Below are positions 6,857-51,509 of a DNA stretch of 64,000 nt, in pieces (positions within the stretch are counted from its first letter, which is position 1; each line of letters starts with the position of its first letter). The translations under genes and the position numbers were made by a program. The notes below the pieces were generated by a model that was given only the letters and a program-made list of their open reading frames with translations, had not been told where the DNA came from and did not search any database. The stretch is from Candidatus Staskawiczbacteria bacterium RIFCSPHIGHO2_01_FULL_39_25. Its GTDB lineage: Bacteria > Patescibacteriota > Minisyncoccia > Minisyncoccales > Staskawiczbacteraceae. Where the stretch lies: contig MHOO01000011.1 in assembly GCA_001820095.1 (NCBI GenBank), positions 135,227 through 199,226 on the forward strand, given 5' to 3'.

Positions 6857-7089
6857 AAAATTCTTTATAATTGGGTCAAGAGTCCAGAAAGTGAGCCGTC
6901 TATAAGCCGTTTTCGGTTCTAACATCGGGACATCACTACCGCATATGAGTAAATCAGTAACAGGTTGAGGCTAAAAACTGCAATTTGTTCTTAAATTTGG
7001 TGCGAATCCCGTCTCCTGTAAAAATCGCTCTTCCAATATTTTTATTTGCGTTTGTACTTGACCGTTTTATTTGGTATAGTGTAAATAAC

Positions 7090-25817: not shown

Positions 25818-28800
25818 GTGAAAATTAACGAAGAAAAAGCCGAAATATTTTTAGACCCTGAAGATTCTAAGAAAAAGCTGTGGGCGGCTTCAGCAGATTT
25901 AATTTCCCTGTCAGAGGCTGCCAAGTTTACGCCCTACAGCGCAGAGTACTTAAGCTATCTCGCCCGCAAAGGAAAAATTGAAGCGGTAAAACTTTCGCGC
26001 GATTGGATGACCACCAAAGAAATTGTGGTTGAGTATGTTAAAGAACAGGAAGATCGGCAAAAAAAATTATCTGAAAGATTCCAGCAAGCCGAACAGTTCC
26101 GCCACCACGCCCAAGCCGGTTTTATTGGCATGAAAATATTAGCGGTAGCCAGCGCGGCTATGATGACGGTTTCCAGCGTACTGTCTCCAACGGTTACCGA
26201 ATATAAAAATCTGGCAGAAAAAGTTTCTGAACTACCAACAAAAGTTTCTGAAATTAAAATGCCGCAGATGCCAGAGATTCCCGAAATTACCCCCGCTGGC
26301 GTAAGCCAATCAACAGTAAATTACCTTACCACCATTAGCAACGCCGCAAACAACCATGCTGAAAATTTGGCGCGATCAGCAGGCAATAATCTAGCGAACT
26401 TAAGCATCTCTGTAAATAACAAAGCTGACAACTTAGCCAGGTCAGCGGGCAACGGCCTTGCCAATTTAAACCAATCAGTAAATGACGGCCTCATTAATTT
26501 AACCAAGCCGTTAACAGCTACGTTGCAAAGTTACAACGTGGGCAACATCAGCGGACGTTACAAAGTTGAAATTCCCGCGTCCGGCACCGCTAAAAAAAAT
26601 CAACTGGCCGTAGTACCAGCAACGCCAACAGCTCCAGCCGTCAAAGATTCTGCTACCACTGCTGCCACGGCTCCCGTAGTAACTTCTAAAGCGCCAAGCG
26701 TTGATGATATTATTGCTCAAAAATTACAGCTCATGCTGGCCCAGGGCCTTCTCACCGGCCCCGCAGGGCCTATTGGCCCAACCGGTCCAGCCGGGCTTCA
26801 AGGCCCTCTGGGTCCGGCAGGCCCGCAAGGGCCGGCGGGGTCTGGCATTGTTAGCAATGGCGGCGGCAGAACGAGCGCCGTAGTTGGAACCACTTCTATT
26901 GTAACGTACATACCCGCCAATCCGCCGGTAAACAATGGAGGCTCATCAATAGCAGGTTTTACCACTCTATCAGCAGACACCTTCAACACCAAAGATGCTA
27001 CGCTTAGCGGTTCATTAGCGGTTACAGGTACTTCCACGCTGGCAAGCATAACCGCTTCAGGCGCTGTAAACCTTACGGGAACTACCACCATTGCCGCGCT
27101 TACCACGACCACCTTAAACCCGGGCTTTACGGCCGGGTCCATTGTATTCCAAGGGGCTTCTAACTTGGCTCAAGACAACGCTAACTTCTTCTGGGATGAT
27201 ACCAACAATCGGCTAGGAATTGGCACGGCTAGCCCAGGCGCATTGCTGGACGTTCGCGGCGCGGCCATTTTCAACGAAGATGGCGCTGACGCGGATTTCC
27301 GCGTTGAAGGAGATACGGATGCCAACCTTTTGTTTATAGACGCTTCCACTGATCGCGTTGGCATTGGCACGGCCACGCCTTCAGCCCTATTCAGCGTTGG
27401 TAGTGGCAGCCCCTTCCAGGTTGATTCTTCCGGCAACATTGCTTCTTCCGGAACCACCGGCGTTACACTTTCCGGGGTTGGCGCCGACCTCACGTTCACA
27501 GGTACCGGCAACCATGATGTTTCGGCTTCGTCTGGAACACTGCGGGTTGGAGCCTCAACCATCATAGGCAATGTCCAAGCCGTAGATGATACTATAGACA
27601 TTGGTACGGCAGGTGTCCGGTTTGATAAAATCTACGCCAATGAAGTCAATGCCTCCATATTGGTGGGCACCATTAGCGGCGGCAATGTTCAGGCAGAAAC
27701 GTTAAGCATTAATTCTGACAACGCCACCGCTGATACCGAGGATGCCTTTTTAGCTTTTGAGCGCGGCACGGTTACCCCCAACGCCCTCTTGCAGTGGGAT
27801 GCTACCAGCGACCTGTTTGACTTCAACTCCCGCCTAAGGCTGACTGGCACCATCCTTGGCGACCCATCAATTATCTTTAACTCTGCTACCGCCAGCGATA
27901 CTGATTATTGGATTTCCCTGCAGGAAGACGGCGCCGGAGACGATGATGACACCTTTCAAATTGGCAAGGGTACAATACCGGGGACCAGCTCTTTTGTCAC
28001 TATCAACAAAGACGGCAACGTCGGGATTGGCACCTCAACGCCGATGTCAGCAGCAGGATTTCGCAAGGGACTAGAAATTGCTGCAGAGCCGAATACGTTT
28101 ACCCCATCACTAGTACTTCGAAGCACTGCCTCCACAAGTAATAATGCACAAATCATGTTTACGGGCCCCTCAGGAAATAACTGGGCAATTGGCACCGACG
28201 TAGCAAGCGGTTCTGGATCACGGGACTTCCATTTTTATGATCTGAACTCCTTAACGCTGAAGATGGTTGTACAGAGTAGTACTGGAAACGTCGGGATCGC
28301 TGACTCCTCTCCCGACGACCTCCTGAACATCCACTCCGCCTCCGCCGCCGCAGGGATGGCGATCACCAGCCTCGGCACCGACACCGACCCGTATATCAAG
28401 TTCGAGCTTGCAGATGGCACTCCCACCTTCACCATGGGCGTGGACGACTCGGACAGCGACAAATTCAAGATCAGCACGACGGCGCTGGGGACGAGTGATC
28501 GGTTGGTGATTGATTCGAGTGGAAATGTGGGCATCGGAGACACCTCCCCCGACGACCTCTTAAACATCCACTCCGCCACTGCCGCCGCAGGATTAGCGAT
28601 CACGAGCCTCGGCACCGACACCGACCCGTATATCAAGTTTGAACTCGCGGACGGCACCCCCACCTTCACCATGGGCGTGGACGATAGCGATTCTGACATG
28701 TTCAAGATTAGCACCACCGCCTTAGGAACAAGCGACCGGTTGGTCATTGATTCGAGCGGGAATGTAGGCATTGGCGATACCTCACCCGACGACCTATTAA

Positions 28801-31800
28801 ACATCCACTCCGCAAGCGCAGCCGCAGGCTTGGCGATCACGAGCCTCGGCACCGACACCGACCCCTATATCAAATTCGAACTTGCGGATGGTACATCCAC
28901 TTTCATTATGGGGGTAGATGATTCAGATTCCGACAAGTTCAAAATCAGCACAACGGCGTTGGGGACGAGTGATAGGTTCGTGATTGATAGCAGTGGGAAT
29001 GTGGGCGTCGGTAACACCGACCCGTATGCCCAATTCCATCTGGGTGCTCGCTACGCTGTAACGCCGACCAACATTACCAGTGCCAAGGCTGCCATCACCA
29101 ACGGTGCTCTGTACATTGGCACGACGGCCCAAGGCTCAAACAACACCAACGTCGATCTGCTTGAGTTAGGACACATTAAGACGGGCGCTTTCGGCGGCGG
29201 TTCGGTCAACATCAACTTCCGGGGCTTCGACGCCGGCAACGGTACGAACAGAGGTGTGCTTGCGCAAATCAATGGCGGTCAGAAAAATGACGATTTGGTC
29301 GGTTCTGGGTTCCTTGCATTTGGCGTAGCTGCTGATGAAGCTACGACTCCTACCGAGGCGATGCGGATTGTCGAAACTGGATTGATCGGAATCCAAAATA
29401 CCGATCCTTACGCAAGGCTTCATGTCGGAGCCAAGTACCCTTTTACTCCCACCGGAGCCACGAGTGGGAAAGCGGCGATCACTGGAGGAAGTTTGTTCAT
29501 AGGTACGTCAGCTCAAGCGGACCACAACCTCAACATCGACCTTTTGGACTTGACCCAAACGCAGAATGGAACAGTCAATGGTGGATCGGTCAATATTAAC
29601 TTCCGGGTCTATGATACCGGTAACAATAGCAACAAAGGTGTCTTAGCGCAGGTCGTTGGTGGGCGCAAAGATGGCATCTCAGCCGCTGGTTCGGGTTTCC
29701 TAGCATTCAAGACAGCGGCAGCTGCCGCAACAACATCAACCGAGAGGATGCGAATCGATGAAAACGGAAACGTCGGGATTGGTGACACTTCTCCCGATGA
29801 CCTTCTAAATATCTCCTCCGCTGCTGCGGAAGCCGGCATTGCGATCACCTCCCTTGGCACCGACACCGACCCGTATATCAAGTTTGAACTCGCGGACGGC
29901 ACCCCCACCTTCACCATGGGCGTGGACGATAGCGATTCTGACATGTTCAAGATTAGCACCACCGCCTTAGGAACAAGCGACCGGTTGGTCATTGATTCGA
30001 GCGGGAATGTAGGCATTGGGACGGCAAGCCCAACGGCATCCTTACACATTAAAGCAGGTACAGCCACCGCCAACACTGCTCCGCTTAAATTTAATTCAGG
30101 GACACTGCTTACCACTGCAGAAGCGGGAGCCGTAGAATTCTTAACCGACGCTTATTACGGAACCATCACCACGGGAGCCGCAAGAAAAACATTCGCATTT
30201 TTAGAAAGTCCAATCTTCACCGGCACCGTTACCATCCCAACTCCATTTACCCTTGGGGCTACTTCGGTAACTACTACCGGCACACAATTGAATTATCTCA
30301 ATGCGGCAACTGGAACCACGGGAACCGCCAGCACTAATCTGGTATTTTCAACTTCGCCAACTATTACAACTCCTATATTTACCACAAATATTACAACTCC
30401 ACTGGTGATTGGAGGCACGTCAACCACCGCTAACCTCACCTTGCAGACCACGACAGGCGTCGGCACGACAGGTGCGGATATGCACTTCCTTGTTGGGAAC
30501 GCTGGGGCGACGGAGGCGATGACGATTTTAAATAACGGAAACGTCGGGATTGGCGATACAGATCCTGGTTCTCTCCTCCAGGTGGCAGGAAGAATTATTG
30601 GTGGTGCGAACACAGCGCCATCATCAAATAATACTACGACTCCATTGTACTTATTCACGAGTGCTAACGGAGGCATTCGTTTGCATCCTTCTGCTGCAAC
30701 AAATAGCACTACTATTATAGACGTAAGCGATGCATCTACTCGATATGCCCAAATTCAATACGATGGCACTAATAGCATATTGAATATTTCAAGCCAACAA
30801 TCAACAACAGGACAAATTAAATTATCAACTGGTTCTGGAACCGAAGCAGTAAGGATTGATGCTTCTCAAAGAGTTGGCATCGGCACCACCGCCCCACAAT
30901 CATTGCTCGATGTTCAAGGACCAACAGGCACCGGAGCAGCAACTGCAGGTATCCTTACGTTAGCCACCAAAGAGCTTACTATTGTTGATGATGACCAATT
31001 AGGAAGAATTAATTTTAACGCCCCTCTTGAATCTGACGGCTCTGACGCTATCTTGGCGGGCGCAGCTATTTGGGCGGAAGCGGAAGCAACTTTTAGCTCC
31101 ACCGTCAACAACACAGCTTTGGTATTTGGAACCGCAACCACATCAGCGGCAGTTGAAAGAATGAGGATAGATGCGAGCGGGAATGTGGGGATCGGCGACA
31201 CTACGCCAAGTTATAAATTAGATGTTACTGGCGATGCTCACTTTACTGCTAATATGACGCTTGATGCTGGTCTTACGGTTGCTAGTACCGCCAGTATTGG
31301 AAGCACGGTGACTCCGTCAAATTCAACGTTATTTGTAAATGGAACACTGGCAATAGGATCAGACGCCCTAAATAACCGGTTTAGCACTACCACCAGCGGT
31401 ACCGGCTCCACCCAGATGTTTATTGGAAATTCTACCATTGATGTAACTGCCCCTTCTGACGTTATTACCAAGGAAAATATTGTTTCTACCCAGTATGGGC
31501 TCAATGACTTAATGAAGCTTTCTGTAAAAGAATTTAATTATAAAAAAGAGTATGTAGATGAAGGCGAAATGCAAAAGCTGCACACGGGAATGATTGCTCA
31601 AGAAGTAGAGCAAATTTTCCCCGAAGCTACTATATATAGGTCAGACGGATTAAAGTCTATTGATTACTCAAAAATGGTGCCGTTGCTTATTAAGTCTATC
31701 CAAGACTTGCGGCTGGAGTTTACTGCTGCTTTGGGAGATTACCTTGCAGCAAACCCAAATGCGCTTACGGGTAGTTCGGGGTCATTGTCTGAAATGAAGA

Positions 31801-32429
31801 GCCTGACATTGAGCGAGGATTTGACAGTAAAAGGAAAAGCGACGTTTGAGGGCGATGTTGACACCCAGGGAACGCTGACCTTAAGCAAGCAGCAGGGAGG
31901 GCTGGCTACTATTGGGGCTGGGGCAAAAGAGGTAAGCATTAACTTTAGCAAGCCGTTTGCCGCAAAACCAATTGTTACGGTAACGCCGGAGGGGGAGTCG
32001 GTGGTGTTCAGCACGTCTGACGTAAGCGCCACGAGCTTTACCATTAAGCTGGCGGTTCCGGCAACGTCTAACATCACCTTTGCCTGGATAGCGCTGGCGG
32101 TACAAGATGCAACTTCTATTAGTACGGGAGGTACGGGCAGTGTTGGCGGAATTTCTGGGTCTTCGGGTGGTTCTGGCTCTTCTACAACAGAGCCTGCGGA
32201 CTCTCCGGCGGCTGAAACTGATTCAACAGCAACAGAGACGCCTGCTGGTTCAGAAGCAGAAGAAACCTCTACTTCTGAAACTGAAACTGCGCCTTCTTCA
32301 GAAACTCCGGTTGCCGAAACTCCAGCCTCTGAACCTGCTTCTGAACCAGAACCAGCTCCAGAACCAGAGCCTGCTCCGGCTCCTGCACCAGAACCGACTC
32401 CCGAGCCAGCTCCAGAGCCAACACCGTAA
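25818..32429 (+). CDS. Giant (2203-aa) membrane-anchored fibre protein: HTH-like N-terminus, TM helix, collagen-like run, tail-fibre-type repeats, peptidase-S74-like chaperone module, lectin-like module, Pro/Glu/Ala-rich tail
   Basis: Uninterrupted 6.6-kb ORF (GTG start); 10 G-X-Y triplets at 26757-26846; 79-aa repeats; SDVITKENIV...MVPLLIKSIQDL module; PEPAPEP tail. Confidence 0.85.
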   Translation: MKINEEKAEIFLDPEDSKKKLWAASADLISLSEAAKFTPYSAEYLSYLARKGKIEAVKLSRDWMTTKEIVVEYVKEQEDRQKKLSERFQQAEQFRHHAQAGFIGMKILAVASAAMMTVSSVLSPTVTEYKNLAEKVSELPTKVSEIKMPQMPEIPEITPAGVSQSTVNYLTTISNAANNHAENLARSAGNNLANLSISVNNKADNLARSAGNGLANLNQSVNDGLINLTKPLTATLQSYNVGNISGRYKVEIPASGTAKKNQLAVVPATPTAPAVKDSATTAATAPVVTSKAPSVDDIIAQKLQLMLAQGLLTGPAGPIGPTGPAGLQGPLGPAGPQGPAGSGIVSNGGGRTSAVVGTTSIVTYIPANPPVNNGGSSIAGFTTLSADTFNTKDATLSGSLAVTGTSTLASITASGAVNLTGTTTIAALTTTTLNPGFTAGSIVFQGASNLAQDNANFFWDDTNNRLGIGTASPGALLDVRGAAIFNEDGADADFRVEGDTDANLLFIDASTDRVGIGTATPSALFSVGSGSPFQVDSSGNIASSGTTGVTLSGVGADLTFTGTGNHDVSASSGTLRVGASTIIGNVQAVDDTIDIGTAGVRFDKIYANEVNASILVGTISGGNVQAETLSINSDNATADTEDAFLAFERGTVTPNALLQWDATSDLFDFNSRLRLTGTILGDPSIIFNSATASDTDYWISLQEDGAGDDDDTFQIGKGTIPGTSSFVTINKDGNVGIGTSTPMSAAGFRKGLEIAAEPNTFTPSLVLRSTASTSNNAQIMFTGPSGNNWAIGTDVASGSGSRDFHFYDLNSLTLKMVVQSSTGNVGIADSSPDDLLNIHSASAAAGMAITSLGTDTDPYIKFELADGTPTFTMGVDDSDSDKFKISTTALGTSDRLVIDSSGNVGIGDTSPDDLLNIHSATAAAGLAITSLGTDTDPYIKFELADGTPTFTMGVDDSDSDMFKISTTALGTSDRLVIDSSGNVGIGDTSPDDLLNIHSASAAAGLAITSLGTDTDPYIKFELADGTSTFIMGVDDSDSDKFKISTTALGTSDRFVIDSSGNVGVGNTDPYAQFHLGARYAVTPTNITSAKAAITNGALYIGTTAQGSNNTNVDLLELGHIKTGAFGGGSVNINFRGFDAGNGTNRGVLAQINGGQKNDDLVGSGFLAFGVAADEATTPTEAMRIVETGLIGIQNTDPYARLHVGAKYPFTPTGATSGKAAITGGSLFIGTSAQADHNLNIDLLDLTQTQNGTVNGGSVNINFRVYDTGNNSNKGVLAQVVGGRKDGISAAGSGFLAFKTAAAAATTSTERMRIDENGNVGIGDTSPDDLLNISSAAAEAGIAITSLGTDTDPYIKFELADGTPTFTMGVDDSDSDMFKISTTALGTSDRLVIDSSGNVGIGTASPTASLHIKAGTATANTAPLKFNSGTLLTTAEAGAVEFLTDAYYGTITTGAARKTFAFLESPIFTGTVTIPTPFTLGATSVTTTGTQLNYLNAATGTTGTASTNLVFSTSPTITTPIFTTNITTPLVIGGTSTTANLTLQTTTGVGTTGADMHFLVGNAGATEAMTILNNGNVGIGDTDPGSLLQVAGRIIGGANTAPSSNNTTTPLYLFTSANGGIRLHPSAATNSTTIIDVSDASTRYAQIQYDGTNSILNISSQQSTTGQIKLSTGSGTEAVRIDASQRVGIGTTAPQSLLDVQGPTGTGAATAGILTLATKELTIVDDDQLGRINFNAPLESDGSDAILAGAAIWAEAEATFSSTVNNTALVFGTATTSAAVERMRIDASGNVGIGDTTPSYKLDVTGDAHFTANMTLDAGLTVASTASIGSTVTPSNSTLFVNGTLAIGSDALNNRFSTTTSGTGSTQMFIGNSTIDVTAPSDVITKENIVSTQYGLNDLMKLSVKEFNYKKEYVDEGEMQKLHTGMIAQEVEQIFPEATIYRSDGLKSIDYSKMVPLLIKSIQDLRLEFTAALGDYLAANPNALTGSSGSLSEMKSLTLSEDLTVKGKATFEGDVDTQGTLTLSKQQGGLATIGAGAKEVSINFSKPFAAKPIVTVTPEGESVVFSTSDVSATSFTIKLAVPATSNITFAWIALAVQDATSISTGGTGSVGGISGSSGGSGSSTTEPADSPAAETDSTATETPAGSEAEETSTSETETAPSSETPVAETPASEPASEPEPAPEPEPAPAPAPEPTPEPAPEPTP

Positions 32430-32448: not shown

Positions 32449-32948
32449 GAATCTTAGTCGAATCTAGAATCTTGTATCTTGTAGCTTGAATAGAATACGG
32501 AATTATGAATAACGATGAAAATAAAATTAAAAAATTCACTGACCTTCATGCTTGGCAGGAGGGGCATAAATTAGTCTTGATGGTATATAAAAATACTGAA
32601 AAATTTCCTGATAAAGAGCGGTTTGGAATTACAGATCAAATGAGAAGGGCGGTAGTTTCACTAACTTCTAATATAGCAGAAGGATTTTCAAGAAGATCGT
32701 CAAAAGAAAAGAACAGATTTTACTGCATGGCCCAAGCATCCTTAGTAGAACTGCAAAACCAACTTATTATATCCCGCGATATTGGTTACTTACCAAATGA
32801 TGATTTTAAAATTATTGCAGATCAGTCAATTGTAGCCAATAAACTTTTAAACGGGCTTTTAAAAGCCACAAAAGATAAAAAATTTGAGTTTTAAATTCTA
32901 GATTCCACATTCAATTCAAGCTTCTAAATACAAGATTCAAGATTCTTA
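32449..32948 (+). mobile_element. Family-2 quasi-palindromic element carrying a four-helix-bundle gene between its arms
   Basis: Left arm 32449-32504 and right arm 32895-32948 match the contiguous empty copies at 42441..42560 and 2862..2988 (inverted). Confidence 0.5.
32505..32894 (+). CDS. Four-helix-bundle protein (23S rRNA intervening-sequence protein family)
   Basis: 129 aa; FTDLHAWQEGHKL, ITDQMRRAVVSLTSNIAEGF and ASLVELQNQL motifs typical of the family. Confidence 0.85.
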   Translation: MNNDENKIKKFTDLHAWQEGHKLVLMVYKNTEKFPDKERFGITDQMRRAVVSLTSNIAEGFSRRSSKEKNRFYCMAQASLVELQNQLIISRDIGYLPNDDFKIIADQSIVANKLLNGLLKATKDKKFEF

Positions 32949-33651: not shown

Positions 33652-33794
33652 AATTTGAAATTTTCAATTTGAAATTTGAAATCAATTTGAAATTATTGAA
33701 TTTGAAATGATTTAAACCCGGCGTCGTGTTTTCAAATTTAAATATTCAATCATTGAAATATTGAATTCAAATTTCAAATTTCAAATTGAAAATT
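33652..33794 (+). repeat. Family-1 quasi-palindromic intergenic element, copy 2
   Basis: Core GAAATGATTTAAACCCGGCGTCGTGTTTTCAAATT with TTTGAAAT/ATTTCAAA arms; ends about 10 nt before ATG 33804. Confidence 0.65.
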
Positions 33795-33803
33795 CGCAAA
33801 GAT

Positions 33804-34556
33804 ATGGACAACAATACTAAAGCGCTCATTATTGGCGGTATCGTAGCGGTGCTCTTGGTGGGAGGATTGTGGGTATTATCAAATACGGAGCTGTTTAGCG
33901 GGACGGAAAATCCATCCCAGAATAATGGGACCATATTGCAAAATAATAAAGAGAAGGGCACGCTGGTGCTTTCTATTACCGATGCCGCCGTTGACATGGG
34001 CACCATAAGCGCCGTAAGCATGACCATAGATAAGGTCTACGTACATAGCAAAGCGCAAGGATGGGTTACGGTGTTAAAGGCTCCGCAAAGCTTCAGCCTG
34101 CTTACCTTAAAGTCAAGCGGACGGGCGGCATTGCTTGCAAAAATTGATATTGCCGCAGATACGTATGACCAGGCCTGGCTGCACATTAGCAATGTAACTA
34201 TTACGGAAGCAGGGAAAGTGAAGGAAGCATTGTTGCCATCCAATGATTTTAAAATGGAAGGCTCAATTAAGGTTGAGAATAATACCAATTCCATTGCTAA
34301 GTTTGATATTCTTGCCGACCAATCTATTCATAAGACCAGCAAAGGGGAATTTGTGTTTGCTCCGGTCATAAAATTTGAAAGCAGGATTAATGCTACCATT
34401 AGTTTTGATTCAAACAATTTTGTGACGATATCGGACGGAAATTTAGTTTCCAGCACTACGGCGGGGATGAATGTTGACGGGCAGGTAAAAACAAATTTCC
34501 AGCTTGACCCTAAAAAAGAGCTTGAGATTAAAAACGGGGTAATTGAAATTAAGTAA
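33804..34556 (+). CDS. DUF4382 domain protein (membrane-anchored)
   Basis: LSITDAAVDMGTISAVSMTIDKVYVH... pattern; ATG 33804 inside ORF 33786..34556. Confidence 0.7.
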   Translation: MDNNTKALIIGGIVAVLLVGGLWVLSNTELFSGTENPSQNNGTILQNNKEKGTLVLSITDAAVDMGTISAVSMTIDKVYVHSKAQGWVTVLKAPQSFSLLTLKSSGRAALLAKIDIAADTYDQAWLHISNVTITEAGKVKEALLPSNDFKMEGSIKVENNTNSIAKFDILADQSIHKTSKGEFVFAPVIKFESRINATISFDSNNFVTISDGNLVSSTTAGMNVDGQVKTNFQLDPKKELEIKNGVIEIK

Positions 34557-34591
34557 TACTAATACTTGAATTTGAAATTGTAAATTTCAAA

Positions 34592-34727
34592 TTAAATCCG
34601 AAGCACGAAATCCGAAATCCGAAACAAATTCAAAATACCAAAATTAAAAATCAAAAAACACGTTTAGAATTTCCCGTCTTTAGAATTTAGATATTGTTTC
34701 GAATTTCGAGATTCGGATTTAGGGTTT
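34592..34727 (+). repeat. Family-3 quasi-palindromic intergenic element
   Basis: AAATCCGAAGCACGAAATCCGAAATCCGAAACAAAT ... ATTGTTTCGAATTTCGAGATTCGGATTT; homologous to 5098..5243 (inverted). Confidence 0.5.
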
Positions 34728-34803: not shown

Positions 34804-34812
34804 TGATATAAT
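34804..34812 (+). promoter_or_regulatory. Extended -10 promoter element (TGaTATAAT) 8 nt upstream of the giant-gene ATG
   Basis: TGATATAAT at 34804-34812; ATG at 34821; implies a leaderless or near-leaderless mRNA. Confidence 0.4.
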
Positions 34813-34820
34813 TGATAAAC

Positions 34821-37800
34821 ATGGTTCTGGGAATCCATATTTTGAAGTTGAAAAAAATACGTAAAAATACGCAGAAATTTTTTGGTATTTTTATATTGAT
34901 ATTCAGCATTTTTAATGTATTTTTAGCATTTCCCGCTAATAATGTCCTTGCCGTTACGGGAGCTCCTAAAATTTTATCCCAGCAGGGCAGATTGCTGAAC
35001 TCAAGCGGGGACTTGCTGGGCGGGTCATCGGGAACAGATTACTGCTTTAAGTTTTCCATTTACGACGCTTCAAGCAGTGGCACCAAACTGTGGCCTTCCG
35101 GATCTCCGTCCAGCATGACTTTTAATGTCAAAAATGGAGTATTTAACGCCTTAGTTGGCGATACGTCGGCTGGGGGAGATGTGCTGGATTACAATTTCCA
35201 AGATAATGATACGGTATATCTTAATGTGGAAGTTGCAACCAAGTCAGGATCCACCTGCGGCACGTTTGAAACATTAACACCACGCCAGCGCGTGGCGTCT
35301 TCTGGGTATTCATTAAATGCCAATACGGTAGGCGGGTTTACTCCCGCGCAATCGGCAACCGGAAATCAAATACCTGTTCTTACCTCCGGCAATCTTATTT
35401 TGGGATCGGGCGGCGGACTTGTCATTACCGGAGGAGCCGGCAATCCGACTGCTACCAATGGCACCGTTTGGTACGATACCACGGCCAATAAATACAAAAT
35501 TGTTGAAAATGGCACCGTAAAAACGCTTTGCAACACGACTGATGCGGGCTGTGGCGCGGGTGGCAGTGGCTCAACCCTTCAGGCCGCGTATGACGCTACC
35601 GGTGGCAATATCATCACAACTACGACCGCGAGGGATATAGACTTTGTGCTTGATAATACTGCCACTGATTCTAATTTTGATATTGATATTAACGCCGGCT
35701 CAACCTCTACAGTTTCAATTTCGCGGCTTGACGGGGCGGACACGGGATTTCCCGCCCAGCTTTTGCTTCTTGAAAATCTGGATACGACCGATGGGCCGGG
35801 GATGGGGCTCCTGATAACTTCGGTAGGAGCGCTTGATACCGCAATAGACCTTTCATCTGCTGCTATAGATACTGCCTTGAATGTAGGAGGCAATAACATC
35901 ATCGGCGGAACCGCCGGAATAACTTTTACGGACTTTATCTTAAGCACTGACGGAAAGATAACTTTTGCATCCGATACGACGGGCGACCAGATGTTCATTA
36001 CAGCTCCGTCGGTTAATTTTCAGGCGTTGGTGGTAGACGCAACCACGAATGATTCCACGCAAACGGAAGGAATGATTGATTTGAATGTTGACACGGCGAC
36101 CAATACCGCGATCGGCGGTCTCGCGCTTGATTTTGCCGTTAAAGACGCGGGGGGAAATTTAACCGTCTACGGAAACAGAACGAATGTGACGGTGGACACG
36201 GACACTGGGCAATCACACACCGTTGCTGGAGAATATATTGGCATCACCGCAAACGACGCGAGCTCAACTACTTACGGTTTGCAAATTGTCGCTGAAGATG
36301 CGGGCGAGCAAGTTGCGACCGCTGGGCTTTTGATTGAAAACTTGCAGGCGACAGACATTGATTTGACGGATGCCGTGCTCGTTCGCGCGACGACGGCGGA
36401 CTCCATCGTTGACGCTTTTGACGCGTCCGATACTGAAATCACCAACGCATTGAATGTCGGGGATAATATCGTAACGGGAGGAGACTGGACTGTCATCAAC
36501 GCCACTGATATTGCCGAAGGCCTCACCTTTACTCTCGCCGGCGGAATAGGCTTTGACATCACCGGTACTGCCGGCCAGGATTTCAGGGTTACCAACACCG
36601 GCGGATCAATCGCGCTTAATGCATCGGAGGCAATCGCGAACGCAATTGCTATTAATGCCTCTAACGCCGCCGGCGGAATTGATATTGATTACGGCACCGG
36701 CGATATCGTTATTTTGGGGACCGGCGTCGGCGCCGACTTCACCCTAGATGCTGATTTAATTTCAATAGACGGAACAGGAACTTCCAACTTTACCATCACC
36801 GGAGCGGTAGATGAAGATTTTACTATTGCTCAAGTTGGTAGCGCGGATAATTCTCTTATTATTTCTTCAACAGGTACAACGGGAGACGCTCTCCAAATTA
36901 AAACCACCGCGGGAGGAATTGATATTACTTCAACGGGTGCGGCCGCCGGGGAAGATATTGATATTACGACTAATGCGTCCGTTAATATTTTTTCCTCTGA
37001 AGCGGCGGTGTCGGACGCGATTAAACTTACTGCCTCGGATGCGGCGGGACAAATTTTCATTGACGCGGGTACGACGGACAAAACTGCGGATGCGATACGA
37101 TTTGATGTGGATATAAATTCGGCAAGCGTTGACGGACTGTTTATGGATTTGGATGTCGGCACGGCGCTCTCATCGGGCGAAATAGGAAATGGCTTAAATA
37201 TTGATGTGGCGGGCCTTGCCGGAGATAATGCGGCATCCGCGATAAATGCGATTTCGCTCACGGGAGATGTAACATCCGCAGGAACCGTAACCGCGATTGA
37301 ACTAAACGGCTCGTTTGACGACAGCATTGATTTATCGGGCGCTTCTACCACGATTGATATTCGTCTTGACGACGGACTTACTATTTCTCAAACATCAGAC
37401 GATGATTTGGATATTGTTGAAGGAAGCCAAACGCTTAATGTTGATTTTGCTGAAACGACTGCCAGCACCATCACGTTTGGAACAGCATCTAATTTAGAAT
37501 TTGAATCAACAGCAAATTCGGCCGCCTCGTTAAAACTTGAGTCAACTTTGGGCGGCATAGACATCTTTGCATCGGGAGCCGGAGCGGGAGAGGATATTGA
37601 TATTATGGCAACGGGGTCTTCTATAAATATTCAATCATCCGAAGCGATTTCTGACGCGATATTGATTGAAGCGACCGGCGCGGGCGGCTCAATGAGATTA
37701 ACTGCGGGAACGGGAGAGCCATCGGCGCTCACTGACGGAAGCGATATTGAATTTTTGACGACTGATGATATTCTTTTTACTCCCGCTGACGATGTATCTA

Positions 37801-40800
37801 CTCGGCTTGCCGCGGGCGATAAGCAATTTTTAATTGATGCGCTGACTAATGCAAATACTTCTACTGGCGGAGTTATTGATTTAAATGTAAGCTCAATAAC
37901 CACCGGTAATATCGGACTCAATATTGATTACACTTCGGCGGACGGCGTGGCGAATGACGCGGATATGTTTGGTGCCAAATTTAATATCACGCAAAGCGAT
38001 ATTAGCGGGGATTTGTTCGGACTTGTGATTTCAAATCTTGCGACTAGCGCGGCTGTCGGCGCCGACGCCGTTGAATGTTTACTCTGTCTGGACAATGTTG
38101 AAAATACTGCCAATGTTTTAAGTGACGCGATACGGATAACAAACTCCGGCGGAACGGATAACGCCATTACCACCGGTCTTGATTTTGATACGGTAAATAT
38201 CGTAACAGATATAGAATTGCAAAATGGCGAGACGATAGATAATAATACCAACGGCACCATTCTTTTCACTGCGCCCACAACGCAAACATCCGGCATAATG
38301 CTCGTTGGCGATGGCTCGGGCGATTATCTGTCATTTTCCGAAGAATCCGGAGATCCTACTGGTTGCGCAGCGGGAGAATTTAGAATTTGGGCGACAACTA
38401 CGGGGAACATTTTACGAAAATGCGAGAACGGAGCGGTCTCAAATCTTGACGCGGCCGGATCGTGGAGTGAAATTACTGCGCCGTCCGGGAATCTTACTCT
38501 TGACCACAAAGAAAACATTACCACTTTTACGTGGGATAATTTTGACGGAATCGCAAACGCCCTTGATTATTTCAAACTCGCTTCAACAAATGATGCGGAT
38601 ACGGACGGTGCCACACAGAGAATCATGGTCATTACCAATAATGACGCGGCCGGCGCGGGAGTCGGAACGACCGAAACGCTTCTTGCCCTTACCAATGCTG
38701 ACGCAAACGAAGCGATTACCAACGGCATTCTTTTTGACGCAACCGGAGCGGGAGGGGCTACCAACGCATTGCAGATAGCAAATTCAGGAGGGGGTACCAT
38801 TACGACTGGCATTAATTTTGCTTCCGGCACCATTACCACGGGCATTGATCTCTCGGGGGCGGCTTCTACAACCGATATCATTTTGGATGATGGACTGACG
38901 ATTGCCCAGACTTCAGACAATGATTTGGATATTGTTGAAGGAAGCCAAACGCTCAATATTGATTTCGCCGAAACAACAGCAAGCACCATCACGTTTGGAA
39001 CAGTATCTAATTTAGAGTTTGAATCAACGGCAAATTCGGCCGCCTCGTTAAAACTTGAGTCAACTTTGGGCGGCATAGACATCTTTGCATCGGGAGCCGG
39101 AGCGGGAGAAGACATTGATATTGTAGCTACGGGGTCAAGCGTGAACATTACTTCAACTGAAGGAGTTGCAGACGGGCTCGTATTCACTTCAACGAATGGC
39201 GGCATTGACATAACAACTACGGGAGCCGCCGCCGGAGAAGATATTGATGTAACCTCAAGCGCATCCTTGAATCTCGTCGGCCAGGAAGCGGTAACCGACG
39301 CGGTCTTGATTGACGCCTCCAACGCTTCCGGCGGAATAACCATGAGTTTTGCCGCCGGCGGGCTGACAATGGCAAACGATGCGGCCAGCTCAGGCACGCC
39401 CACAGGACTTGTATTCACTGGCGCGCTGCACACGGCTTTAGCCAATGCCGAAGCGACGGATGTAAATTTTAATTTGGGACGCACGGTGCAGTTTACCGGA
39501 ACAGCTACGCTACCAACACAAAGAGCATTCAGAATTCAAAATCCGACTTATTCTTCAGACACAGCCACCAAAACAATCAACAATGCGATAACATTGTCTA
39601 TTGGAGGGCCGCCCATTCAAGGAACAAATGTTACCTTAGGCAGCACCTATGGATTAAAAATAGACACCGCCGCCGTTAGCACCGCCACCAATGCCTATGG
39701 CTTGTATGTTGAAGTCCCAACTGGGGCGACCAACAATTGGTCTGCCTGGCTGACCGGCTCAATGGGCGGTCGGCAGGGGACTTGCGTAAGGACTGATACG
39801 GGGAACCTAACAGTAAACTGGTCAACTGTTACCGGCGGTGCCGGAAATAATTGCAATTCTTCAAGCTCAAACCTCGGCGTAAATAATTTAACTTATTACG
39901 TTGAACAAAATGCCGCCGCGACCGCAACGGTTTTTACCGTTAACATTGATACTATACCCAATATAGACGGAACTATAGCGTTTGTAGTCACAAGAGCTCT
40001 TACGTGCGGTGCTGTAAGCAACAGATCAGTTGTTATCCAAGTTCAGGGGACTACGGTGATGACCAACACTTGTTCGGCAACTGTAACTGATACGGAGTTG
40101 AGCGGCGTTGTCATTAGGGGCAATGGCACGTGGCGCCATATCGGTTATTTTCCGGGTTCCACAAATGACTTGGAAGCGTCAGACTTGGCCGAGTGGATTT
40201 CTTATACTGGCCAAAAACCTGTAGCAGGAGAATTATTATCGGCGGCAAATGCATCTCAGACGGTAGAAAAATCAAATGGTGCCTATCAAAGAGGGCTTTT
40301 AAGCTTTGTTTCCACCAAGCCGCATACTACTATGGGCAAGCAAACGGAAAATTCCGTGCCAATAGTCTTAGCGGGAAGAGCGCCGGTGATTGTAACGACC
40401 AGAAACGGCAATATAAAAAACGGAGATCCCATTACTTCATCTTCAATGCCCGGAGTTGGGATGCGCGCGTGGAAAGCCGGCATTACGGTGGGGAAAGCCC
40501 TTGAAAATACGGATGATTGGAACGACGCAAATTGTCCGGCGGTTTCTTCTTATGAAAACATTTCATGGCCGGAAGATGACGGGACAAATCCCGCGCGCCC
40601 GTGCTTTAATGTCAATGGCGTGTATATCGGAAAAATTATGATGATGATGGAATACGGGTACACAGAGGGCGATGCGGAAGGATTTGTTGACGCAGCGATT
40701 AACAACGCGCCCGAGGGAATGGAAGCGGCGCAGGCGATACTTACCGCGCTTTCAAGTAATAAGCAAACTGATGTAGAGGAAAAAGACCTTTCTCAAATAT

Positions 40801-42089
40801 ATACTGACAGAATCATTGCCGGCCTTGAAGTTATTGCTCCCGAAATCACAACTAAAAAATTGAGTGTTGACGAAATTATTGCTGGGAAAGTTAACGCCAA
40901 GCAAATTTTAGGGCTTGAGATATTTACCGATAAAATTTCCGTTTTGGACGCGGCGGTTGCCGCGCTTGAGTCGTCGCAGGAAAGCGCATCAGAGGATATT
41001 TCAGAAAGCATTGCAGAAAATTCAATAAGCGTCCAAAATCTTATCGCGGCAGTTTCTGGCATACAGCCGCAGATTGATGCGAACGGGGAGACGATCGCGA
41101 ATTTGCAAATTACATTTGATAAATTAAACGAGAACTTCACCGTGCTTTCAGCCGCGGTTTCCGGCATACAGCCGCAGGTTGATGCAAACGGGCAGACACT
41201 TGCGAATTTGCAAGCTACCTTTGACGAATTAAGCAAGAACTTCACGGTCTTCTCAAATTATTTTGCTTTTGATGTTGCCGATGTTTTGCAGATAACCAAG
41301 GGGCTTAAAGTAAATGCGCTTGCAACTTTTTCGGGGGGATTGCAAGTTGATTCCATTGATTCTATTTCCGGCATGTTGTCATTTGTTTCCGATGTTTCTT
41401 TCTTTGGCACGCCGTACTTTAATACCGATACCGCTGGATTTGCGGTTATACATTCCGGTGATCGTTTTGTAGATATAGTATTTGAAAAAGAATACCTAGA
41501 AAAACCGATAGTTAACGCAACTATTTCTCTTGAATCAGATAATCAGTTGGCAGATGAATTGGTATTTACCAGCGATATCAGGTTTATTGTCACCAAGAAA
41601 AGCGTTAAAGGATTTACCATTGTTTTAAATAAACCAGCTCCTGCTGATATTATATTTAGCTGGACTGCGTTTGCCGTAAAAAATCCAAGAACATTCTTTT
41701 CATTAAAACCGGAAGTTGTGGCGCCTGCAGCTTCAGAACCGGCGCCTAGTTTGGCGCCTGCATCGGAGCCTGTTGTTGAACCTGCTATTGAACCTGTCTT
41801 AGAGCCTGCTTCTGAACCACAGCCTGCTTCGGATTCAGAGCCAGCGCCAGAATCTGTTCCGGAATCTGAATCTACTTTGACTCCAGCTTCTGAACCAGTT
41901 CCTGAACCTTCACCAGAACCAGCTCCGGCTGAATCTGACCCACCTGCAACCACAGAGCCGGTTACAGAGCCAGCTCCAGAACCTGCCCTCGAACCAGTGC
42001 CAGAATCAATTTCTGAACCAACTCCGGAGTCAGCCCCCGAGCCTGCCCCAGCCCCCGAACCAACTCCTTCTCCTGAACCAGCCCAGTGA
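34821..42089 (+). CDS. Giant (~2422-aa) secreted or anchored fibre protein with internal duplications, coiled-coil segment, lectin-like module and Pro/Glu/Ala-rich tail
   Basis: Uninterrupted 7.3-kb ORF; hydrophobic signal/anchor FFGIFILIFSIFNVFLAFPA; its C-terminal module is collinear with that of 25818..32429. Confidence 0.85.
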   Translation: MVLGIHILKLKKIRKNTQKFFGIFILIFSIFNVFLAFPANNVLAVTGAPKILSQQGRLLNSSGDLLGGSSGTDYCFKFSIYDASSSGTKLWPSGSPSSMTFNVKNGVFNALVGDTSAGGDVLDYNFQDNDTVYLNVEVATKSGSTCGTFETLTPRQRVASSGYSLNANTVGGFTPAQSATGNQIPVLTSGNLILGSGGGLVITGGAGNPTATNGTVWYDTTANKYKIVENGTVKTLCNTTDAGCGAGGSGSTLQAAYDATGGNIITTTTARDIDFVLDNTATDSNFDIDINAGSTSTVSISRLDGADTGFPAQLLLLENLDTTDGPGMGLLITSVGALDTAIDLSSAAIDTALNVGGNNIIGGTAGITFTDFILSTDGKITFASDTTGDQMFITAPSVNFQALVVDATTNDSTQTEGMIDLNVDTATNTAIGGLALDFAVKDAGGNLTVYGNRTNVTVDTDTGQSHTVAGEYIGITANDASSTTYGLQIVAEDAGEQVATAGLLIENLQATDIDLTDAVLVRATTADSIVDAFDASDTEITNALNVGDNIVTGGDWTVINATDIAEGLTFTLAGGIGFDITGTAGQDFRVTNTGGSIALNASEAIANAIAINASNAAGGIDIDYGTGDIVILGTGVGADFTLDADLISIDGTGTSNFTITGAVDEDFTIAQVGSADNSLIISSTGTTGDALQIKTTAGGIDITSTGAAAGEDIDITTNASVNIFSSEAAVSDAIKLTASDAAGQIFIDAGTTDKTADAIRFDVDINSASVDGLFMDLDVGTALSSGEIGNGLNIDVAGLAGDNAASAINAISLTGDVTSAGTVTAIELNGSFDDSIDLSGASTTIDIRLDDGLTISQTSDDDLDIVEGSQTLNVDFAETTASTITFGTASNLEFESTANSAASLKLESTLGGIDIFASGAGAGEDIDIMATGSSINIQSSEAISDAILIEATGAGGSMRLTAGTGEPSALTDGSDIEFLTTDDILFTPADDVSTRLAAGDKQFLIDALTNANTSTGGVIDLNVSSITTGNIGLNIDYTSADGVANDADMFGAKFNITQSDISGDLFGLVISNLATSAAVGADAVECLLCLDNVENTANVLSDAIRITNSGGTDNAITTGLDFDTVNIVTDIELQNGETIDNNTNGTILFTAPTTQTSGIMLVGDGSGDYLSFSEESGDPTGCAAGEFRIWATTTGNILRKCENGAVSNLDAAGSWSEITAPSGNLTLDHKENITTFTWDNFDGIANALDYFKLASTNDADTDGATQRIMVITNNDAAGAGVGTTETLLALTNADANEAITNGILFDATGAGGATNALQIANSGGGTITTGINFASGTITTGIDLSGAASTTDIILDDGLTIAQTSDNDLDIVEGSQTLNIDFAETTASTITFGTVSNLEFESTANSAASLKLESTLGGIDIFASGAGAGEDIDIVATGSSVNITSTEGVADGLVFTSTNGGIDITTTGAAAGEDIDVTSSASLNLVGQEAVTDAVLIDASNASGGITMSFAAGGLTMANDAASSGTPTGLVFTGALHTALANAEATDVNFNLGRTVQFTGTATLPTQRAFRIQNPTYSSDTATKTINNAITLSIGGPPIQGTNVTLGSTYGLKIDTAAVSTATNAYGLYVEVPTGATNNWSAWLTGSMGGRQGTCVRTDTGNLTVNWSTVTGGAGNNCNSSSSNLGVNNLTYYVEQNAAATATVFTVNIDTIPNIDGTIAFVVTRALTCGAVSNRSVVIQVQGTTVMTNTCSATVTDTELSGVVIRGNGTWRHIGYFPGSTNDLEASDLAEWISYTGQKPVAGELLSAANASQTVEKSNGAYQRGLLSFVSTKPHTTMGKQTENSVPIVLAGRAPVIVTTRNGNIKNGDPITSSSMPGVGMRAWKAGITVGKALENTDDWNDANCPAVSSYENISWPEDDGTNPARPCFNVNGVYIGKIMMMMEYGYTEGDAEGFVDAAINNAPEGMEAAQAILTALSSNKQTDVEEKDLSQIYTDRIIAGLEVIAPEITTKKLSVDEIIAGKVNAKQILGLEIFTDKISVLDAAVAALESSQESASEDISESIAENSISVQNLIAAVSGIQPQIDANGETIANLQITFDKLNENFTVLSAAVSGIQPQVDANGQTLANLQATFDELSKNFTVFSNYFAFDVADVLQITKGLKVNALATFSGGLQVDSIDSISGMLSFVSDVSFFGTPYFNTDTAGFAVIHSGDRFVDIVFEKEYLEKPIVNATISLESDNQLADELVFTSDIRFIVTKKSVKGFTIVLNKPAPADIIFSWTAFAVKNPRTFFSLKPEVVAPAASEPAPSLAPASEPVVEPAIEPVLEPASEPQPASDSEPAPESVPESESTLTPASEPVPEPSPEPAPAESDPPATTEPVTEPAPEPALEPVPESISEPTPESAPEPAPAPEPTPSPEPAQ

Positions 42090-42440: not shown

Positions 42441-42560
42441 TAGAATCTAGAATCTCGTATCTTGAATCTGGAATAGAATAAAGGAATGCTGAATTCAAAA
42501 AACTTCATATTCCAAATTCAAAATTCAATTCAAGCTACCAGATACTAAATTCAAGATTCA
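42441..42560 (+). repeat. Family-2 quasi-palindromic intergenic element, empty copy
   Basis: AGAATCTAGAATCTCGTATCTTGAATCTGGAATAGAATAAAGGAAT ... TTCCAAATTCAAAATTCAATTCAAGCT...CAAGATTC. Confidence 0.6.
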
Positions 42561-44555: not shown

Positions 44556-44591
44556 ATTAATTTTCAATTTTCAATTTTCAATCAATTTTCA

Positions 44592-50741: not shown

Positions 50742-50748
50742 TAAAAAT

Positions 50749-51507: not shown

Positions 51508-51509
51508 TT

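Follow-up and report, generated by a model that had tools for sequence, protein, structure and literature searches.

A giant Candidatus Staskawiczbacteria gene encoding a candidate membrane-anchored adhesion fibre of phage-fibre-type modules with an internal Peptidase_S74 module

The subject of this study is a giant gene (giant gene 1; product, giant protein 1) of Candidatus Staskawiczbacteria bacterium RIFCSPHIGHO2_01_FULL_39_25, a member of a Parcubacteria lineage in the candidate phyla radiation (CPR). It lies on the chromosomal contig MHOO01000011.1 (GenBank assembly GCA_001820095.1). The analysed DNA, hereafter the window, comprises 64,000 nucleotides (nt; positions 135,227 to 199,226 of the forward strand), and all positions are counted from its first letter. 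Giant gene 1 is the single long open reading frame (ORF) in its part of the window, and the same 2203-residue product has been annotated by NCBI on contig MHPB01000013.1 of assembly GCA_001820275.1. From the N- to the C-terminus, the protein consists of a winged-helix head, a transmembrane (TM) helix, a stalk, collagen triplets, a shaft, a Peptidase_S74 module, a lectin-fold domain and a tail (Table 1). An earlier note on this DNA, made from the letters and their translation, had read the domain order from the translation, and that order was upheld. On balance, we consider giant protein 1 to be a chromosomal, N-terminally membrane-anchored homotrimeric adhesion fibre built of phage-fibre-type modules, a reading that we hold with some, though not strong, confidence.

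Table 1 Features of giant gene 1 and of the genes downstream, with positions in the window and residues (aa) of the respective product
Feature	Position (strand)	Residues	Basis or remarks
Giant gene 1	25818..32429 (+)	2203 aa	GTG start; stop 32427-32429
Excisionase/MerR-class winged-helix head, putatively cytoplasmic	25887..26087 (+)	~aa 24-90	HTH_17 in homologues, AlphaFold2, Foldseek
Juxtamembrane helix and single TM segment	26115..26183 (+)	aa 100-122	Kyte-Doolittle hydropathy over 19 residues (KD19) >1.6
Low-complexity stalk	26184..26756 (+)	aa 123-313	Two ~22-aa NLARSAGN-containing repeats and an Ala/Thr/Pro-rich stretch
Collagen triplets	26757..26846 (+)	aa 314-343	Ten G-X-Y in an unbroken run; Pro at X in 8/10
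Phage-tail-fibre-like shaft	26850..31454 (+)	aa 345-1879	~14 'IDxxGNVGIG' repeat starts
Three tandem 79-aa repeats	28278..28982 (+)	aa 821-1055	Tandem Repeats Finder (TRF), period 237 nt
Two tandem ~130-aa repeats	28998..29768 (+)	aa 1061-1317	Profile self-search
Fourth 79-aa copy	29754-29990	aa 1313-1391	Profile self-search
Predicted scissile bond Pro1879/Ser1880	31452..31457 (+)		Alignment to MyRF P586/S587
Peptidase_S74 (intramolecular chaperone auto-cleavage) module	31455..31751 (+)		Ser1880/Lys1885, Phe1906/Tyr1908, C-terminal helix aa 1950-1978
H-type-lectin-fold six-stranded beta domain	31845..32102 (+)	~aa 2010-2095	AlphaFold2, Foldseek; H_lectin below threshold
Low-complexity tail	32103..32426 (+)	aa 2096-2203	Gly/Ser, then Thr/Glu/Ser, then (Glu-Pro-Ala)n
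Four-helix-bundle 23S_rRNA_IVP / TIGR02436 protein	32505-32894 (+)		Directly downstream of giant gene 1; weak Avd similarity
Giant gene 2	34812..42089 (+)	2425 aa	Signal-peptide-like N-terminus; without S74 and HTH head
Lectin-like module of giant gene 2	41370-41663	aa 2187-2284	Followed by a Pro/Glu-rich tail

The S74-like chaperone module recognised by the earlier note was recovered above the curated Pfam threshold. PF13884 scored 42.4 bits against a cutoff of 22 (E 8.8e-11) over residues 1880-1937, which correspond to model positions 1-56 of 58, and the SDVITK motif starts at residue 1880 (nt 31455). A phmmer search against PDB sequences returned the intramolecular chaperone auto-cleavage (ICA) domain of MyRF (E 0.008) and, more weakly, the phage fibre termini 8jov, 3gud and 6f45. 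P1879-S1880-D-V-I-T-K1885 aligned to P586-(S587)-D-L-R-A-K592 of MyRF, and F1906 and Y1908 aligned to Y615 and Y617. MyRF is cut between P586 and S587, and the S587A and K592A substitutions abolish this cleavage (PMC8326128). The same study equated S587 and K592 with S911 and K916 of endoNF, and attributed the trimerisation of MyRF to a C-terminal coiled coil (PMC8326128). The AlphaFold2 (AF2) model of residues 1858-2100 had a mean predicted local distance difference test (pLDDT) score of 87.4, and its S74 fold (pLDDT 83-97) ends in a 29-residue helix at residues 1950-1978. The best PDB match of the S74 model in Foldseek was again the MyRF ICA domain (7dc3; E 8e-4, probability 1.0).

The serine and the lysine five residues on were invariant in 61 of 61 related S74 modules. 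In 28 of these the module lies within 70 residues of the C-terminus, in the other 33 it is followed by 100-600 residues, and the dyad is complete in both classes (28/28 terminal, 33/33 internal). The internal position claimed for the module is thus correct and general. In giant protein 1, 266 residues follow the Pfam match, and this differs from the phage-type arrangement, in which only a coiled coil of ~30-70 residues follows. The residues that autocleavage is predicted to require are all in place. Because the internal S74 position is general and the dyad invariant among the relatives, a cleavage that would free a lectin-plus-tail fragment is a fair prediction.

The shaft that precedes this module contains the tail-fibre repeats described before, with 6 strict matches to the IDSSGNVGIG type and ~14 by profile. 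It was matched by PHROG tail-fibre families (phrog_9942, E 8e-47 over seven stretches; phrog_18345, E 2e-28), and several weaker PHROG matches fell on the S74 region. A tblastn search with residues ~795-1561 retrieved pelagiphage and cyanophage genes at 25-31% identity over at most 81% of the 767 residues, and these genes are annotated as 'tail fiber', 'chaperone of endosialidase' or 'virion structural protein'. Judged from sequence, the homology of the shaft to virion fibres is genuine. Its length may be roughly estimated as of the order of 100 nm by extrapolation from phage fibres of known length. Significant profile matches were obtained for both the S74 and the tail-fibre families, the lack of which the note had named among the things that would speak against it.

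These strong PHROG matches, the tblastn matches to tail fibres and S74 'chaperone of endosialidase' genes, and a GC content raised to 0.51-0.54 in the gene against ~0.40 around it would also suit a phage or prophage tail-fibre gene lying in a bacterial contig. We regard this explanation as very unlikely given the gene context. The Pfam scan of the neighbourhood covered the 47 window ORFs besides the two giants, and capsid, portal, terminase, tail, baseplate, integrase and reverse transcriptase (RT) families had zero matches among them; all 47 are housekeeping, defence or unassigned. Upstream of the giant gene lie GroEL, M48 peptidase, BacA, GlmS, transketolase, DnaG, RpoD, pyruvate kinase, ABC-F ATPase and DEAD helicase genes, and downstream a restriction-modification/AbiV-type defence cluster, a histidine kinase and a dCTP deaminase. 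The encoded DEAD-box helicase is identical to proteins recorded for Candidatus Staskawiczbacteria metagenome-assembled genomes, which places the contig in a Parcubacteria/CPR organism. The loci of three homologues were likewise situated among housekeeping genes (P0071, L20/IF3; P0002, LeuRS/LepA/MurJ; P0022, UvrA/UvrB), and no virion genes were seen around them. The absence of capsid, terminase and integrase genes nearby and the cellular, non-prophage setting, both asserted by the note, were accordingly borne out, and its guess at an episymbiont-type organism agrees with the CPR lineage of the contig.

The base composition of the gene points in the same direction. The GC excess is located at codon position 2 (0.52 versus 0.33-0.38) because the protein has a Thr/Ala/Gly/Ser-rich composition, whereas the GC content at codon position 3 (0.50) equals that of the neighbour genes, lying inside their range. 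There is no sign of recent transfer in the base composition. The N-terminal helix-turn-helix (HTH) head and TM anchor are also not a virion attachment domain. The cassette of S74 module and lectin-fold domain was not found in viruses, although these negatives have limited sensitivity: in 50,697 phage genomes its S74 part alone was matched (query residues 7-137), with a coverage of at least 80% in 0 of 227 records; the top 50 structural matches in BFVD aligned 94-174 of 243 positions; and an IMG/VR pattern scan with one lectin sub-clade found nothing. Prophage origin was rejected on the gene context in four genomes and the codon-position GC. A scan for promoters and terminators gave signals no better than chance, and NCBIfam had zero matches for giant protein 1.

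Downstream of the S74 helix, AF2 predicted six strands at residues ~2027-2094 with a pLDDT of 96-98. In Foldseek this domain matched H-type lectins, namely, the Helix aspersa and Helix pomatia agglutinins (4q56, 2ccv and 2ce6; E ~7e-3, probability 1.0, template modelling score ~0.5 on the target), and further lectins, SLL-2 and discoidin II (entries 3wmp and 2vme), with overall probabilities of 0.94-1.0 and E values of 7e-3 to 0.26. It also matched C-terminal domains of phage and tailocin proteins, including R2/R1 pyocin fibres, LKA1 gp49, phi297 gp61, Sf6 tailspike, K64-1 depolymerase, K1 lyase and the Pam1 tailspike (27% identity, rmsd 2.2 Å). The H-type-lectin-like pattern that had been proposed therefore stands at the level of the fold but falls short of the Pfam threshold. 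H_lectin (PF09458) gave no match in the whole-protein scan, and the segment alone was sub-threshold (E 0.0027, 18.3 versus 24 bits, model positions 2-66 of 67). Among 24 relatives, H_lectin was matched by 9 (best E 1e-4) and K1-lyase_C by 6, and the profile of the lectin module found nothing significant among PDB sequences.

The same profile, searched against 1.84 billion cluster representatives, retrieved 7,540 proteins at E<=1e-3 and 2,966 at E<=1e-10. In the best 143 of the 7,540 carriers, the median distance of the module from the C-terminus is 102 residues, and a Ser/Pro/Thr/Ala/Glu-rich tail comes after it, with a TM-like segment in 2 of the 143 tails; S74 stands directly upstream in 51, with a usual gap of 25-60 residues. 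The PEPAPEP tail noticed earlier in giant protein 1 is present in the translation. The lectin-plus-tail ending is also borne by proteins that lack S74, such as the product of giant gene 2, and so forms a terminal module in its own right rather than an extension of the chaperone. Giant gene 2 has no Pfam family; its product carries coiled-coil-like repeats near the C-terminus, ahead of the lectin-like module, and its DNA contains internal repeats (300 nt at 85%, and a 105-nt tandem).

The wide occurrence of this ending bears on an alternative to the adhesion fibre, in which the lectin domain and acidic tail would bind glycans of the cell's own envelope and serve as a retention and assembly module rather than as an adhesive tip. 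The chain would be held by the TM helix and by its wall-bound C-terminus, the C-termini would thereby be concentrated, and S74 would trimerise and nucleate the shaft. Cleavage would then free the mature fibre, with the last shaft repeat (residues ~1784-1879) as its tip, as in T5 pb1 and the endosialidase. Such a role would suit an independent C-terminal ending found in 7,540 clusters, usually ~100 residues from the C-terminus, and a giant gene 2 product with a signal-peptide-like N-terminus and no other candidate anchor. The strict conservation of the dyad in internal S74 modules implies a downstream part meant for separation, and the receptor-binding part of phage fibres is established to lie upstream of S74. 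However, in 50 mid-size carriers the module was fused to fibre or adhesin parts alone (Pfam partners: S74 in 12, Bact_surface_Ig-like in 2, Laminin_G_3 in 1 and H_lectin in 1, at 3.3e-5), and never to enzymes or wall-anchored cargo; no enzyme fusion was found in this sample by Pfam. A further idea, that the module is a generic wall anchor of secreted enzymes, was unsupported in the same 50 carriers. The two paralogous modules of this genome are 34% identical, no closer than orthologues elsewhere, and the nearest phage and pyocin structural relatives are distal, receptor-side domains. On these grounds a retention module appears possible but unlikely.

At the other end of the protein, the anchor was defined by hydropathy. 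Kyte-Doolittle values above 1.6 were reached in two overlapping 19-residue windows alone, starting at residues 100 and 103, and because this is the sole such region, giant protein 1 has one TM segment, as had been claimed. The TM helix ILAVASAAMMTVSSVL occupies residues 107-122. Its flanks are basic on the N-terminal side and net acidic on the C-terminal side, charges which agree with a predicted N-in orientation, and the AF2 helix 67-122 runs continuously from the head into the TM segment. As the head has no signal peptide before it and one TM helix after it, N-in is the simplest topology; the head would then be cytoplasmic and everything past residue 122, ~2080 residues, would be exported.

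The exported part would begin with the low-complexity stalk. The NLARSAGN motif reported for this region is present, but as just a pair (residues 183 and 205), so that the word 'repeats' slightly overstated it. The ten collagen triplets were found exactly where they had been placed, and this segment would be ~9 nm long by rough estimate, the rise of collagen being 0.286 nm per residue. The Collagen HMM search that the note had proposed as a check gave no Pfam match to giant protein 1; the Pfam model is about twice as long as the stretch of triplets, which we take to be the probable cause.

The head had been described as an excisionase/MerR-like HTH segment (residues 28-59). This description was supported by the predicted fold and by 17 of 20 homologous heads that matched HTH_17 (PF12728; best E 1e-9), whereas the query itself missed the cutoff of 27, with 15.6 bits for the whole protein and 20.8 bits (E 4.8e-4) for the isolated head. 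The AF2 model of the head had a mean pLDDT of 85, exceeding 90 for residues 21-100. It contained strand 28-30, helices 31-37 and 42-51 and strands 57-59 and 62-66, all at a pLDDT above 90, and so the beta-alpha-alpha-beta-beta topology of a winged helix is present. Foldseek matched the model to TraN of pIP501 (4p0y), the RdfS excisionase (8dgl), mycobacteriophage Xis (4j2n), BldC (6ama) and P2 Cox (4lhf), with probabilities of 0.90-0.99 and rmsd of 1.5-3.3 Å over 44-58 residues; the E values were weak (0.05-0.4) because the domain is small (~55 residues). The sequence profile of the head also touched the TraN homologue AM32 (E 0.019). In an alignment of 20 heads, the core 'SLSEAAK-TPYSAEYLS-LARKGK' was conserved, including Tyr44, Arg50 and a basic R-K-G-K patch. 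Most homologous heads are succeeded within ~20-200 residues by a TM-like stretch of clear hydrophobicity, and some homologous proteins carry a tandem pair of heads.

The motif [TS]PY[ST]AEYL[SG][LY] was scanned in reference genomes, one per species, and 94 loci in three contexts were found: ~25 small stand-alone ORFs, ~33 N-terminal heads of large single-pass Patescibacteria proteins, and the C-terminal end of ~15 proteins of ~310-360 residues, mostly from Nitrososphaeria and other archaeal metagenome-assembled genomes (MAGs). The stand-alone copies, in ~25 reference genomes, come mostly from Saccharibacteria MAGs. One stand-alone HTH_17/MerR protein of 82-85 residues (loci L005/L006, 7316-7573 (-)) is divergently oriented and lies immediately upstream of the gene of homologue P0002 in Candidatus Nomurabacteria. 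In the archaeal type (loci L041, L042, L046, L055, L058, L059, L062, L063, L067, L073, L075 and L078; match at ~10001-10150 in most), the HTH occupies the extreme C-terminus, after ~260 N-terminal residues, in Nitrososphaera, Nitrosopumilales, Micrarchaeota and Thermoplasmata MAGs. The head is a genuine mobile domain of the excisionase class, and its fusion to a TM segment and a giant ectodomain is routine in CPR bacteria. By analogy with its fold class, it probably binds DNA.

A DNA-binding-type domain on a membrane-spanning fibre could be read as a ToxR/CadC-like signalling device, in which the fibre would sense contact or tension and the trimer-clustered heads would alter transcription. The trigger might be fibre engagement or shedding of the distal cassette, and the reading is compatible with adhesion. 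The head shares its fold with the DNA-binding Xis, BldC, TraN and MerR-N domains, stand-alone head proteins exist in ~25 reference genomes, one of them divergent beside the P0002 gene, and the combination of head and TM segment is conserved on ~33 large proteins, some of which have a tandem pair of heads like that of TraN. An unbroken predicted helix joins head and membrane. We nevertheless give this reading only a small chance, for no DNA target, operator repeat or regulated neighbour was identified, no neighbour gene was conserved among the four loci (the query and three homologues), and the query missed the HTH family threshold. In addition, a release of the head as in MYRF demands the DNA-binding domain and the ICA on one side of the membrane; here the TM segment (residues 100-122) lies between head and S74, which would place S74 on the opposite side, and MYRF-type head release is therefore excluded.

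A whole-protein search with a limit of E<=1e-3 returned 217 homologues, of which nearly all are giant proteins of Patescibacteria; those listed measure 1.2-3.8 thousand residues, and the named sources are Nomurabacteria, Paceibacterota, Moranbacteria, Daviesbacteria and 'Patescibacteria group'. Iterated profiles on the fetched homologues found S74 in 60 proteins, the post-S74 module in 24 and the head in 19. Direct searches with the short segments from the C-terminus and the N-terminus recovered 6 and 2 hits, respectively, a yield limited by the word prefilter. Giant protein 1 belongs to a large family, and hence is not unique. The homologue P0001 is 97.7% identical to residues 105-1006 of the query, is without the repeat block of ~1007-1306, and then continues with a further 92.6%-identical stretch, whereas its distal half is wholly different and ends in a Bact_surface_Ig-like domain, without S74. 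P0001 is evidence of repeat-mediated deletion and distal cassette exchange within a population. Phage receptor-binding proteins are known for the same mosaicism, in which the proximal portion is nearly identical and the distal one has been exchanged, and we therefore argue that specificity lies distally.

The distal modules vary across the relatives, comprising lectin-like, Ig-like (PF16403), Laminin_G_3 and YadA-head types, the last in P0028. In relatives negative for the lectin profile, the S74 coiled coil is still succeeded by a small module and a low-complexity tail. One such module has the Cys motif ~C-x-G-x-T-C-[VI]-[TD]-E-x-Q-L (P0003, P0005, P0035, P0047, P0072 and P0074) and another the motif 'G-[FI]-T-I-Y-D...C' (P0002, P0006, P0012 and P0076); both are without family assignment and both are followed by low-complexity tails. 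A third type is a divergent lectin-like or Bact_surface_Ig-like domain.

The order of stalk, autoprotease and variable C-terminal module, with the distal end swapped between near-identical relatives, recalls a polymorphic toxin or contact-dependent effector whose C-terminal cargo would be released by S74, and tail-fibre repeats are known as stalks of polymorphic toxins (PMC3482391). This explanation is highly improbable on the gene content. Neither a toxin fold nor a toxin family turned up at the C-terminus, where the modules are of lectin, Ig-like or low-complexity type; the gene directly downstream encodes a 23S_rRNA_IVP-family four-helix bundle, which is no known immunity family; and S74 is not among the releasing peptidases of the survey (PMC3482391). 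With toxin and immunity families not found and S74 absent from the surveyed peptidases, the polymorphic toxin was rejected. The Avd-like similarity of this downstream neighbour had also suggested that the giant gene might be the target of a diversity-generating retroelement. Its product scored 24 bits with DivGenRetAVD, far under the cutoff of 80 for this equivalog, no repeat pair resembling a template and a variable repeat was found in the window, and no RT was present among the window ORFs scanned; this candidate was likewise rejected.

The evidence on the modules can be assembled into a mechanism for the adhesion fibre. Collagen triplets, phage-fibre shafts, S74 modules with coiled coils and H-type lectins are classically trimer-forming. 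By analogy with phage fibres, three chains would trimerise with nucleation at the S74 module and coiled coil, and folding of the shaft would run from the distal end towards the membrane to give the long fibre estimated above. A cut at Pro1879/Ser1880 would set apart a 324-residue trimer of chaperone, lectin domain and tail, which might be shed or stay as a non-covalent cap (or, under the retention alternative, be left behind as an envelope-binding assembly aid). The fibre would adhere to glycans on a partner or host cell, with its specificity in the exchangeable distal part, and the putatively DNA-binding head might act as a membrane-tethered regulator reporting the state of the fibre or as a tether to the nucleoid or a partner. 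CPR bacteria, or Patescibacteria, account for much of bacterial diversity and live mostly attached to other cells, and by what means they recognise partners and hold on to them is largely obscure. The adhesion fibre is favoured by this way of life, by the mosaicism of the distal half and by the kinds of distal module found, which are lectin, Ig-like and YadA-type. The idea of a cellular fibre built from phage-type parts, put forward in the note, gained support from the chromosomal context and the tail-fibre and S74 homology, and the attachment organelle that it proposed is a putative role, surface exposure, cleavage and binding being predictions.

Several points weigh against this interpretation. 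Expression, export, trimerisation, cleavage and binding are all predictions from sequence and models, and the AF2 structures are predictions of monomers. Both HTH_17 and H_lectin scored below their Pfam thresholds for the query, the Foldseek E values of the head are weak, and the hydrophobicity of the TM segment is moderate (Kyte-Doolittle 1.71). Cleavage at S74 would detach the lectin domain, which is awkward for an adhesive tip. Finally, the lectin-plus-tail ending occurs without S74 in giant gene 2 and in 92 of the 143 carriers, and its role may differ from receptor binding.

A more far-reaching possibility, which we regard as speculative and rather improbable, is that a single chain links the outside of the cell to the chromosome: a trimeric antenna of ~100 nm would gather three DNA-binding heads under the membrane. 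The state of the heads would be set by assembly, by engagement of glycans on a partner cell or by S74-mediated shedding of the lectin cassette. If this were true, the protein would be a rearranged bacterial counterpart of MYRF, providing CPR episymbionts with a transcription switch that responds to contact, or with a tether between fibre and nucleoid, and dispensing with a two-component system. The S74-lectin cassette would then be a cap whose shedding is regulated, as opposed to a chaperone that is discarded.

The remaining part of the window was surveyed around the two giant genes. Just after giant gene 2, a 449-residue protein (43206-44555 (+)) contains fn3 and Big_6 domains and a weak dockerin-type match, and because it adjoins giant gene 2 the stretch is regarded as a surface-protein cluster. 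Between the two giants is a DUF4382 gene (33786-34556). AT-rich direct repeats of two families were observed in intergenic DNA, one of 56 nt at 61-80% (32890-32945, 34572-34627 and 42504-42559) and one of 52 nt at 63-75% (33659-33710, 34569-34620 and 44559-44610); both are located in the spacers after giant gene 1, before giant gene 2 and after giant gene 2, and could be shared regulatory or terminator regions of the surface-protein cluster. The defence cluster (49875-53235 (+)) comprises an N6/N4 DNA methylase, an EcoO109I-type restriction enzyme, an AAA_15 ATPase and a HEPN AbiV protein. A SocA/Panacea antitoxin-domain gene (6985-7581 (+)) is separate from this cluster, and two PD-(D/E)XK/Cas4-like nucleases are encoded at 54379-55218 and 60926-61696.

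In a full-text literature search, no paper joining Patescibacteria or CPR with S74, the intramolecular chaperone or endosialidase was found, and none of the papers retrieved in a further search mentioned an H-type lectin. The giant gene is a concrete and widespread candidate for a receptor-binding phage fibre that has been converted into an organelle anchored to the cell, its distal modules being exchangeable. It indicates that bacteria use the auto-cleaving S74 chaperone at an internal position, where domains of adhesion type come after it. It also brings to notice a lectin-fold terminal module that spans thousands of protein clusters without a Pfam family of its own, and an excisionase-type HTH that is routinely joined via a TM helix to giant extracellular proteins.

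Among known systems, the S74 fibres and tailspikes of phages (endosialidase endoNF/K1F, T5 pb1 and phi29 gp12) share with giant protein 1 the shaft homology, the Ser/Lys dyad and the coiled-coil helix, as well as collagen-like triplets and the logic of a trimer. Unlike them, giant protein 1 has a TM anchor and no virion attachment domain, is encoded on the chromosome with no virion genes nearby, and carries its S74 internally with a lectin-fold domain and tail after it, whereas the phage receptor-binding domain precedes S74. The eukaryotic membrane-bound transcription factors MYRF and MrfA resemble it in an internal S74/ICA module (best match 7dc3), in the conserved P/S...K motif and aromatic pair, and in a DNA-binding-type domain and one TM helix on the same polypeptide. 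The order of modules differs, being HTH-TM-fibre-ICA in giant protein 1 and DNA-binding domain-ICA-TM in MYRF, where cleavage frees a DNA-binding trimer; the excisionase-type winged helix and the Ndt80 domain of MYRF are also unrelated folds.

The C-terminal beta-sandwich is shared with R-type pyocin fibres and tailspikes (R2 pyocin PA0620, Pam1, LKA1 gp49, phi297 gp61, Sf6 and K1 lyase), although in those proteins it forms the extreme C-terminus of the mature fibre, with no S74 before it and no disordered tail. H-type lectins (Helix pomatia and Helix aspersa agglutinins, SLL-2 and discoidin II) have the same six-stranded beta-sandwich, and their trimers would fit a predicted trimeric fibre, but the Pfam score of giant protein 1 lies under the gathering threshold, and its lectin-fold domain belongs to a giant bacterial fibre that ends in an acidic tail. 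The membrane-bound one-component regulators ToxR and CadC likewise combine an N-terminal winged helix, a single TM segment and an extracytoplasmic C-terminal part in the topology predicted here; they differ in an HTH of the OmpR/PhoB type instead of the excisionase/MerR-N type, and in a compact sensor instead of a fibre of ~2000 residues. YadA-type autotransporters, BclA and Scl are comparable in that a long trimeric surface fibre, predicted in our case, bears a globular distal domain and a collagen-like segment. In contrast to these, the anchor of giant protein 1 is N-terminal and its shaft is of the phage-fibre type, and it is without a beta-barrel anchor (no Pfam match at E<=1 for the YadA-type barrel, the C-terminus being a disordered tail), an LPXTG motif or an exosporium-targeting motif. 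Taken against these systems, every module is of a known fold class, and the sequences are public, mostly as hypothetical proteins. What is new is the HTH-TM-fibre-S74-lectin-tail arrangement and its use by a cell, together with a lectin domain that follows S74 instead of preceding it and the large extent of the un-named lectin-module family.

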